From assembly GCF_003334335.1 (NCBI RefSeq), contig NZ_QOWQ01000004.1: a stretch of 64,000 nucleotides of DNA. One strand, 5' to 3'. Positions 58,074 through 59,927 of the stretch are shown here, piece by piece. The notes beneath the pieces were generated by a model that had not been told where the DNA came from, ran no database searches, and was given only the letters and a program-made list of their open reading frames with translations. A program made the translations under genes and the position numbers. Origin of the DNA: Escherichia coli (lineage in GTDB: Bacteria > Pseudomonadota > Gammaproteobacteria > Enterobacterales > Enterobacteriaceae). Every line of letters starts with the position of its first letter. The first letter of the stretch is position 1.

Positions 58074-59927
58074 TTACCTTTCCAGTCTTCTTGCTCCACG
58101 TTCAGAGAGACGTTCGCATACTGCTGACCGTTGCTCGTTATTCAGCCTGACAGTATGGTTACTGTCGTTTAGACGTTGTGGGCGGCTCTCCTGAACTTTC
58201 TCCCGAAAAACCTGACGTTGTTCAGGTGATGCCGATTGAACACGCTGGCGGGCGTTATCACGTTGCTGTTGATTCAGTGGGCGCTGCTGTACTTTTTCCT
58301 TAAACACCTGGCGCTGCTCTGGTGATGCGGACTGAATACGCTCACGCGCTGCGTCTCTTCGCTGCTGGTTCTGCGGGTTAGTCTGCATTTTCTCGCGAAC
58401 CGCCTGGCGCTGCTCAGGCGAGGCGGACTGAATGCGCTCACGCGCTGCCTCTCTTCGCTGCTGGATCTTCGGGTTAGTCTGCATTCTCTCGCGAACTGCC
58501 TGGCGCTGCTCAGGCGAGGCGGACTGATAACGCTGACGAGCGGCGTCCTTTTGTTGCTGGGTCAGTGGTTGGCGACGGCTGAAGTCGTGGAAGTCGTCAT
58601 AGCTCCCATAGTGTTCAGCTTCATTAAACCGCTGTGCCGCTGCCTGACGTTGGGTATCTCGTGTAATGACTGGTGCGGCGTGTGTTCGTTGCTGAAACTG
58701 ATTTGCTGCCGCCTGACGCTGGCTGTCGCGCGTTGGGGCAGGTAATTGCGTGGCGCTCATTCCGCCGTTGACATCGGTTTGATGAAACCGCTTTGCCATA
58801 TCCTGATCATGATAGGGCACACCATTACGGTAGTTTGGATTGTGCCGCCATGCCATATTCTTATCAGTAAGATGCTCACCGGTGATACGGTTGAAATTGT
58901 TGACGTCGATATTGATGTTGTCGCCGTTGTGTTGCCAGCCATTACCGTCACGATGACCGCCATCGTGGTGATGATAATCATCATTGTCATGATGATGATG
59001 GTCATGATCGTCGTCGTCCCAGTCGATGCTGCTGAATAGTGCGTACGTGGTAGCAACGCCCATGCTATAGCCGAATCCGCGTACAAAGCTGTCAACAAAC
59101 GGTTCTCCGGCTGGTGGTGGCAGATAAACCGGCGGATACGCAGTATTGGCCCAGTTCCCGTAAACCACGGTTGGGTTGTAGTTGGGAATATAGACCACAT
59201 CAGGATTGGCGGGCTCAATGGAAATGACGGTTGTTGCCGGCTCTGTAATGACGGGGTTGGCAGTTAAAACTGTATTGGATGGTATGACGGGTGCCGTGAC
59301 TGTCTGTTTTACCGGTACAGCTTTCTTCGTTGTGGTAATAACTTTCTGTTCGGTTGATGACTTCAGCGAGCCGGTTTGTTGCGCCAGTTGCCGCAATCGC
59401 TGTACCGAGTCCATCACGTCCTGCGGCTGGGCCAGAAAAGCATCGCCCAGGTTTTGCACCCATTGCGGGTTTTCGCCCATCAATGCCATCAATTGTGGAA
59501 AGGCCACCAGTGATTTAACGCTGGCGTCCCACGGCTGGTCAGATACCGCCTGAATAGCAGCATCGCCTTGTTTAAGTGGATTATCGTGCGACCATTGCAC
59601 TGCTTGAGCAACGTTTGTCGGATAGGTTGATGCCATCAGCACCTGCGAAAGTAGGGCGTCGGGATACAGCGCGACGGGCGCGACCCATTGATCTATTTGT
59701 GCAGTGCTGAATGCGGATTTGACGACGGCGGGTGTTACGGGAGGTGCGGAAACCGTTGCAGGAAACGTAACCGCGGCAGCGTCAGACACAGCCAGTTGTG
59801 TCGATTGCGGTTCCACAGGCGCTTCCACTGTGCGGCTTTTTATATATAGCCCGGTAGAGGCGGCACAAAGCCCGGCACTGCAAATTAGCGCCAGCACATG
59901 GGGTTTAAACGGCAAAGTCATTTTCAT
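58074..59927 (-). CDS. yacH: uncharacterised exported protein with His/Asp-rich segment and C-terminal tandem repeats
   Basis: 617-aa ORF; N-terminal signal peptide; DDDHDHHHHDNDDYHHHDGGH segment; about four repeats containing SASPEQRQ(A/V)(V/F)RE. Confidence 0.85.
   Translation of the reverse strand: MKMTLPFKPHVLALICSAGLCAASTGLYIKSRTVEAPVEPQSTQLAVSDAAAVTFPATVSAPPVTPAVVKSAFSTAQIDQWVAPVALYPDALLSQVLMASTYPTNVAQAVQWSHDNPLKQGDAAIQAVSDQPWDASVKSLVAFPQLMALMGENPQWVQNLGDAFLAQPQDVMDSVQRLRQLAQQTGSLKSSTEQKVITTTKKAVPVKQTVTAPVIPSNTVLTANPVITEPATTVISIEPANPDVVYIPNYNPTVVYGNWANTAYPPVYLPPPAGEPFVDSFVRGFGYSMGVATTYALFSSIDWDDDDHDHHHHDNDDYHHHDGGHRDGNGWQHNGDNINIDVNNFNRITGEHLTDKNMAWRHNPNYRNGVPYHDQDMAKRFHQTDVNGGMSATQLPAPTRDSQRQAAANQFQQRTHAAPVITRDTQRQAAAQRFNEAEHYGSYDDFHDFSRRQPLTQQQKDAARQRYQSASPEQRQAVRERMQTNPKIQQRREAARERIQSASPEQRQAVREKMQTNPQNQQRRDAARERIQSASPEQRQVFKEKVQQRPLNQQQRDNARQRVQSASPEQRQVFREKVQESRPQRLNDSNHTVRLNNEQRSAVCERLSERGARRLER

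Follow-up and report, generated by a model that had tools for sequence, protein, structure and literature searches.

yacH of Escherichia coli: a DUF3300 gene with a His/Asp-rich loop, a SASPEQRQ repeat tail and no DUF2950 partner

The yacH gene of Escherichia coli occupies positions 58074..59927 on the minus strand of the DNA analyzed here, a stretch of 64,000 nucleotides from contig NZ_QOWQ01000004.1 (assembly GCF_003334335.1), hereafter the window; all coordinates refer to it, and every segment of the gene described below lies on the minus strand. The evidence supports a description of the product, YacH, as an envelope-stress-regulated protein of the DUF3300 family (Pfam PF11737), in which the tip of a hairpin is expanded into a His/Asp-rich loop, the tail is a lineage-specific array of cationic helical repeats, and the gene is orphaned from that of DUF2950 (PF11453). 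yacH is one of the K-12 genes still without a function and stands for thousands of proteobacterial DUF3300 proteins. It is a known gene of a catalogued family for which no function is established, and the first-pass annotation of the window, made from the letters alone, described it accurately.

The open reading frame (ORF) comprises 617 amino acids (aa) plus stop, starts with ATG and contains one terminal stop only. Over its whole length, its DNA is 100% identical to yacH as annotated in K-12 derivatives, which bears out the name it had been given. No frameshift interrupts it and the substitution analysis given below agrees that the gene is intact rather than a pseudogene. A match is present in all 5426 complete E. 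coli genomes searched, and in 5370 of them a single place covers at least 80% of the gene (such a place is missing from the other 56).

Architecture of YacH within the DUF3300 family

YacH begins with a signal-like segment (aa 1-24, 59856..59927), in which MKMTLPFKPH is followed by the hydrophobic stretch VLALICSAGLCAAS; it is recognized by hydropathy, by a helix in the structural model and by its conservation in enteric orthologues. The Kyte-Doolittle 19-residue maximum is 1.9 at aa 11, and a full-length AlphaFold2 model built on 100 homologues places a helix at aa 9-24. A CAAS/T pattern in this N-terminus is compatible with a small-x-small signal peptidase site, as predicted from sequence. 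The feature belongs to the family: the N-terminus is hydrophobic in 98 of 100 homologues, and a small-x-small motif follows directly in 96 of those. The export signal read by the first-pass annotation is thus plausible, and the yacH product, a DUF3300 protein, is probably exported through Sec to the envelope. The next segment (aa 25-74, 59706..59855) is a linker predicted to be disordered, judging by its composition (Ala/Val/Pro/Ser/Thr-rich over aa 36-74), a predicted local distance difference test score (pLDDT) of 42-59 and the highest ratio of nonsynonymous to synonymous substitution rates (dN/dS) in the gene.

The Pfam DUF3300 domain spans aa 75-333 (58929..59705; E 1.5e-78, score 263.8, model positions 2-227 of 227). 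It opens with a helical subdomain (aa 75-185) and leads through a linker rich in Thr, Val and Pro into a beta part rich in Pro and aromatic residues. In the AlphaFold2 model, the use of which had been suggested as a check, the subdomain comes out as eight helices (aa 75-184; pLDDT about 96 over aa 75-200), followed by this second Thr/Val/Pro linker, the beta part and an unstructured His/Asp loop; the conserved aa 338-383 are again confident, and beyond them lies a helical tail with two helices per 32-aa unit (pLDDT 77-90 for the repeat helices of aa 457-547). A model of the DUF3300 domain only reaches a pLDDT of 85.4 and a predicted template modeling score of 0.84. The DUF3300 fold has no solved structural relative, and no NCBIfam model matches the YacH protein or its tail. 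At the 50% identity level, an exhaustive HMMER search gives 9,563 representative clusters of the family (E <= 0.001).

The His/Asp-rich loop, WDDDDHDHHHHDNDDYHHHDGGHRDGNGWQHNGDN, occupies aa 303-337 (58917..59021), is encoded by GAY/CAY codon runs and lies between the conserved 'DW' and the 'I-N-I/V-D/N-V' strands. His and Asp account for 22 of its 35 residues, where shuffling gave at most 13, so that the run noticed at first reading is real. It is followed by a conserved segment (aa 338-373, 58809..58916), INIDVNNFN...W360-x-H362-x-P-x-x-R367-x-GVPYHD, which falls outside the Pfam model yet is shared across the family. W360, H362 and R367 are each at least 90% conserved in the family alignment (A1), and pLDDT is 93 at aa 361-380. 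In the family as a whole, conservation past the Pfam model takes the form of 'DW', an I-N-V-N strand and W-x-H-x-P-x-H-R-x-G-V-P-Y-R-D.

The family alignment sets the loop in context: it is the expanded form of a turn, between 'DW' and the following strand, that measures 4 aa (median of 100 homologues). This turn contains 20% His, against 1.9% overall; the zone from DW to W-x-H contains 7.1% His against 1.5% elsewhere, with at least three His in 35 of the 100, and several distant DUF3300 members carry H-x-H-x-H strand patterns at the hairpin position. In Enterobacterales orthologues (Citrobacter, Cedecea, Kluyvera, Phytobacter, Hafnia, Rahnella) the turn is enlarged to 17-45 His/Asp-rich residues, and among 120 close E. 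coli variants the loop measures 25-47 aa, in frame in every one. A His-rich turn across the family together with its expansion across the Enterobacterales examined indicates that the run is old, retained and lineage-wide, not an oddity of E. coli. The His enrichment of the turn throughout the family also lends some support to the first-pass reading of the run as a putative metal-binding or low-complexity region. His-rich metal-binding segments exist in other bacterial proteins, such as Hpn, HypB and SlyD. Compared by composition only, the YacH loop is likewise dense in His (with Asp) within a flexible segment; unlike them, it is an insertion at the hairpin tip of a protein predicted to be exported.

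C-terminal tails are net positive in 95% of the 100 homologues (median +14, 15% Arg, 15% Gly). The K-12 YacH tail carries +17 over 244 aa, and it is Arg/Gln-rich rather than Arg/Gly-rich. A shorter motif, TRD(S/T)QRQAAA, occurs twice, 23 aa apart, at aa 399-444 (58596..58733), with predicted helices at 400-414 and 423-438; it is also found in the Citrobacter, Cedecea and Enterobacter orthologues. The main array follows at aa 457-584 (58176..58559) and is supported by Tandem Repeats Finder, by the sequence, by shuffles and by the model. SASPEQRQ recurs at aa 469, 501, 533 and 565, defining four 32-aa units with the consensus QQ(R/Q)(R/K)DAAR(E/Q)R(I/Y/V)QSASPEQRQ... and a net charge of +14 for the array. 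Adjacent units share 69-75% protein and 68-84% DNA identity. Tandem Repeats Finder reports a period of 96 bp (2.5 copies, 88% matches, score 384) at 58307..58547, and a lag of 32 gives 78 identities, where none of 5000 shuffles exceeded 37 at any lag. The first-pass annotation had described about four tandem repeats of roughly 30 aa and 100 bp; the periodicity holds, and the unit can now be set at exactly 32 aa, or 96 bp. The C-terminal end (aa 585-617, 58077..58175; …RLNNEQRSAVCERLSERGARRLER) may include a degenerate half-repeat, and its end motif is kept among the Escherichia alleles examined.

The number of units varies between strains, as the comparison across genomes proposed at the outset makes clear. 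Counts of the SA(S/T)PEQR motif range from 2 to 5 among E. coli variants. Of 60 complete genomes sampled at even spacing, about 31 have a four-copy span (627 bp) and about 22 a three-copy span (531 or 519 bp), so that both alleles are common; in the remaining seven the repeat span aligned only partly. Strains 82.0311 and ST131 were verified to carry three-copy alleles, of 585 and 587 aa, and the tail of E. albertii has three SATPEQRQ units. The regular array is restricted to Escherichia; other enterics have Gln/Arg/Ser-rich tails with degenerate echoes only. A search with the tail alone against 5.8 billion proteins returned nothing beyond E. coli/Shigella YacH fragments, and tail searches in Pfam, NCBIfam and PDB gave no significant match. 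The YacH of Cedecea sulfonylureivorans has a different tandem repeat in its tail, roughly TA(T/A)QQQHRDAVKNQVKHP in about three copies, from which it follows that lineage-specific tail repeats arose more than once.

Set against its family, YacH matches the DUF3300 domain over its full length, with the DW, W-x-H-x-P and GVPY motifs, a net-positive tail and a hydrophobic N-terminus that may be an export signal. It differs in its hairpin turn of 35 aa, in having Arg/Gln helical repeats instead of an Arg/Gly tail, in lacking the (A/V)(F/L)SG...RG..S tail motif and in the absence of a downstream DUF2950 gene.

The DUF2950 gene and its loss in Escherichia

A DUF2950 gene directly 3' of DUF3300 was first seen on three metagenomic or genomic contigs. 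The survey of partners took 80 DUF3300 loci from species-representative genomes, 72 of them with enough flanking sequence, and used a hidden Markov model (HMM) built from the DUF2950 proteins of the contigs. In 70 of the 72 informative loci the next gene downstream, in the same orientation, encodes DUF2950; all 29 aligned partners were confirmed by Pfam, and those inspected have a signal-like N-terminus too. Clustering of all flanking ORFs disclosed no further conserved neighbor beyond lineage-specific synteny. Bradyrhizobium sp. Oc8 is the sole non-Escherichia locus with ample downstream sequence yet no DUF2950. Several genomes of Variovorax, Cupriavidus, Achromobacter and Caballeronia contain two or three separate DUF3300 loci (L028/L029; L032/L035/L041; L056/L060; L026/L044; L036/L073), each with DUF2950 where enough downstream sequence is available, which indicates that the module is often multi-copy. 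The DUF3300 family and its pairing with DUF2950 are already known: their co-localization, without a known function, was noted earlier (Seshadri et al., 2015, PMC4653623), and induction of DUF2950 in two rhizobial symbiosis transcriptome studies was reported in the same work (Seshadri et al., 2015). For the N-terminal part of DUF2950 (alignment A3), profile comparison yields only very weak similarity to designed NTF2 proteins (E 0.37-0.7), along with a single weak match to SnoaL_2 in Pfam, a faint hint, from sequence profiles, that the protein may adopt an NTF2-like fold.

The pair is present at the acnB/lpd locus of Citrobacter, Pseudescherichia, Pseudocitrobacter, Kluyvera, Enterobacter and Phytobacter, syntenic with E. 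coli. The Enterobacteriaceae orthologues examined share this locus with E. coli yacH, and the enteric YacH orthologues (Citrobacter, Kluyvera, Enterobacter, Cedecea, Hafnia, Rahnella) also share its N-terminus, Pro/Ala-rich linker and His/Asp-expanded loop. The other enterics differ from E. coli in that DUF2950 is directly downstream, the SGNDSRSPSWQ motif is kept and there is no regular SASPEQRQ array. DUF2950 is absent from the 70-bp spacer between yacH and lpd and from the whole window, and it is also absent from E. albertii. A search for a remnant with nine enteric DUF2950 proteins (tblastn against the window and loci L004 and L005) gave chance-level matches only; the longer spacer of E. 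coli 82.0311 contains a REP-like element and no DUF2950 remnant, and the Citrobacter DUF2950 gene has no match in the 5426 E. coli genomes at the sensitivity of blastn. DUF2950 is thus lost in E. coli and E. albertii.

The tail motif of the family follows the same division. A regular expression for (A/S)(F/L)xG...R...RG..S is positive in 35 of 100 homologues, and the SGNDSRSPSWQ-type motif or close variants (found by regular expression or by eye) occur in 11 of 14 non-Escherichia enteric orthologues, that is, in all those with readable tails. The form (A/V)(F/L)SGNDSRSPSWQ...RG..S is missing from E. coli K-12, from locus L004 and from E. albertii. The loss of DUF2950, the loss of the tail motif and the gain of repeats coincide as one event in one lineage, so that the link between them is a correlation only.

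What is learned from the E. coli copy, its partner gone and its tail rebuilt, may not hold for other DUF3300 proteins, and Citrobacter or Enterobacter may serve better as models of the DUF3300-DUF2950 pair. The loss of DUF2950 in Escherichia, the family-wide His-rich hairpin, the Escherichia-only repeats, the three- and four-copy alleles and the deep allelic divergence treated below were not found described in the literature searched, the coverage of which is incomplete; these additions to what is known of yacH are useful but incremental.

Possible roles and competing explanations

The literature searched on yacH, DUF3300 and DUF2950 (again with incomplete coverage) offers regulation and screen phenotypes only and no function, in agreement with the initial statement that none is established. 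yacH is regulated by CpxR and repressed by protamine, and a deletion mutant survives protamine better (PMC9600279). Expression is strongly down in a rob mutant (PMC7537768), the promoter is induced by ampicillin (PMC8865558) and a cathelicidin-derived peptide causes mild induction (PMC6737244). Deletion of yacH raises the yield of recombinant green fluorescent protein (PMC7376861), and the gene is listed among the uncharacterized 'y-ome' (PMC12133099). YacH further appears as a negative control in a DNA-damage screen and among the candidates of a genome-wide association study of conjugation, where no effect is described for it.

On the reading that we favor, the His-rich hairpin would lie in the periplasm and bind divalent metal ions or protons, while the Arg/Gln-rich tail would bind polyanionic components of the envelope; together they would influence the charge of the envelope and its permeability to cationic peptides. 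Such a role would fit the dependence on CpxR and Rob as well as the better survival of the deletion mutant under protamine. Length changes in the GAY/CAY codon runs and in the array of 96-bp units may arise by slippage or unequal recombination and, the units being multiples of three bases, would adjust length without turning the gene off. That hairpin and tail act in this way and so influence susceptibility to cationic peptides is a tentative proposal. Several points weigh against it. The protamine phenotype comes from a single study, and better survival on deletion is not explained by simple charge shielding. The length of the loop is hypervariable, and several strains of Salmonella Typhimurium have a YacH truncated by the loss of 8 bp among the corresponding GAT/CAT codons (PMC3391293, PMC10048834), which inactivates the gene at no obvious cost; hypervariability and tolerated frameshifts together suggest that the loop may be tolerated low complexity and not a functional site. 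Metal-dependent regulation of yacH is not reported in the literature searched. Finally, about a third of the homologues have a transmembrane-like segment before the loop, and in some members at least the tail could be cytoplasmic. A phase-variable contingency locus was considered and rejected: the units are 3 bp and 96 bp, 120 of 120 variants are in frame, and the frameshifts reported in Salmonella trace to one 8-bp deletion.

The transmembrane-like segment is the starting point of a different topology, for YacH and for DUF3300 proteins in general, in which the helical domain would be periplasmic, the Gly-rich hydrophobic segment preceding 'DW' would span the membrane once, and the His segment and Arg-rich tail would be cytoplasmic, binding nucleic acid or another anionic partner. 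The 19-residue hydropathy of this segment has a median of 1.49 in 101 sequences and is at least 1.6 in 34% of them; basic residues (HRRH, GRGD) follow it in many members and, with the 95% of tails that are positive, fit the positive-inside rule, and some database records say 'membrane protein'. The hydropathy of YacH's own segment is just 0.78, however, and AlphaFold2 gives short packed strands here (pLDDT about 72-85) and no helix, pairing the post-loop strand with the pre-loop strand. A single-pass topology is the main rival to the favored reading, though an unlikely one.

It could also be argued that yacH is a functionless leftover of the DUF2950 loss, its repeats and His/Asp run being drifting low complexity. 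This would account for the missing partner and tail motif and for the extreme length polymorphism; an IS1 insertion in one strain, pseudogenes in several Salmonella Typhimurium strains and a viable deletion mutant whose recombinant protein yield is even improved point the same way. Selection argues otherwise. Nei-Gojobori dN/dS values for K-12 against five other Escherichia alleles are 0.07-0.16 for the whole gene, 0.01-0.08 for the helical subdomain, 0.02-0.06 for the beta part and 0.07-0.15 for the repeat tail, rising to 0.22-0.71 only in the N-terminal signal and first linker (aa 1-74). The values for the whole gene, the helical subdomain and the tail are low across divergences up to saturated dS, and a whole-gene ratio in this range argues against a decaying leftover, as do the coverage of at least 80% in 5370 of 5426 genomes, the preservation of the frame in all length variants examined and an expression that responds to envelope stress. 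The substitution pattern supports purifying selection on a gene that is still functional in E. coli, and decay is an improbable explanation.

A more ambitious form of the favored reading extends it to the whole family: DUF3300 and DUF2950 would constitute a widespread, undescribed two-protein periplasmic system with a new fold, the hairpin serving to sense or bind metal ions or protons and the tail to anchor the protein to anionic envelope polymers; Escherichia would have rewired it to do without DUF2950, replacing the partner-related tail motif with SASPEQRQ repeats. This is speculative, and we consider it about as improbable as decay. Were it true, E. coli yacH would be a natural 'partner-free' form with which to dissect the system.

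Slightly less probable still is that YacH is a variable protein exposed at the surface or to the host, its linkers, loop and repeat number diversified by selection, for example by phage, colicin or immune pressure. Its attraction lies in allelic variation. Between K-12 and ST131, dS is 0.25 in yacH and 0.054 in lpd; along the gene dS forms a mosaic, 0.4-0.8 at aa 186-302 and about 0 at aa 338-385, a pattern that suggests intragenic recombination. E. coli AST85 (NZ_AP043644.1, L084:4001-5860) carries a full-length allele with 74% protein identity to K-12, more diverged than the YacH of E. albertii (78%); dS there is about 2.4 in yacH against 0.19 in acnB, and the lpdA protein is identical. By its sequence, the AST85 allele seems to be either imported or very old, and alleles of this kind appear to be rare, to judge by the 56 of 5426 genomes without a place that covers 80% of the gene. 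Three- and four-copy alleles being both common would likewise suit diversification. Against this, dN/dS stays below 1 in every segment, and the neighboring genes are highly expressed and hence known for low dS, so that part of the contrast is expected. Whatever their cause, the in-frame length polymorphisms are possible strain markers and natural variants for studying loop and tail function.

The regulation by Cpx might also suggest that the repeats are helices of the LTXXQ type, as in the chaperones or metal sensors of the Spy/CpxP/ZraP kind, which are Cpx-regulated envelope proteins with helical hairpins and P-E-Q-type helix starts; the likeness of S-P-E-Q-R-Q and the amphipathic helix after it to these proteins is one of motif only. 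This identity was rejected and is hardly credible, as no sequence relationship is detectable: there is no LTXXQ match in Pfam at E <= 10 (best RskA_N 0.054, DUF3106 0.84), Spy, CpxP and ZraP chains are absent from the PDB sequence search at E <= 10, and the tail has no relative outside the YacH fragments of E. coli/Shigella among the 5.8 billion proteins.

Flanking sequences and minor observations

yacH is convergent with lpd (plus strand, ending at 58003) and divergent from acnB (plus strand), the gene order that had been read at first. The 70-bp spacer between yacH and lpd contains a pair of hairpins (58012..58061, no strand assigned; RNA fold -28.1 kcal/mol, z -3.6). The first, at 58033..58061, stands between an A-run and a T-run in the manner of a bidirectional terminator, and the second lies at 58012..58030. 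A search of the yacH flanks for RNA families gave sub-threshold matches only, over the terminator hairpins, and a scan for consensus promoters and terminators there was uninformative. On the acnB side, the mechanically listed ORF (60129..60281 of the window) starts 51 codons 5' of the annotated GTG start (VLEEYRKH...), which is an artefact of ORF listing.

In the wastewater strain SW071611 (NZ_CM129855.1), yacH is interrupted by an IS1A insertion. The spacer between yacH and lpdA measures 241 bp in E. coli 82.0311 (L085:3259-3499), against 70 bp in the window, and the additional bases match REP-like elements present at other places in the window (about 40100-40250 and 854-888). In E. albertii, yacH and lpd are separated by ~750 bp, and this gap contains a small minus-strand ORF, read by eye (L005:6990-7250), with a signal-like N-terminus and unrelated to DUF2950.

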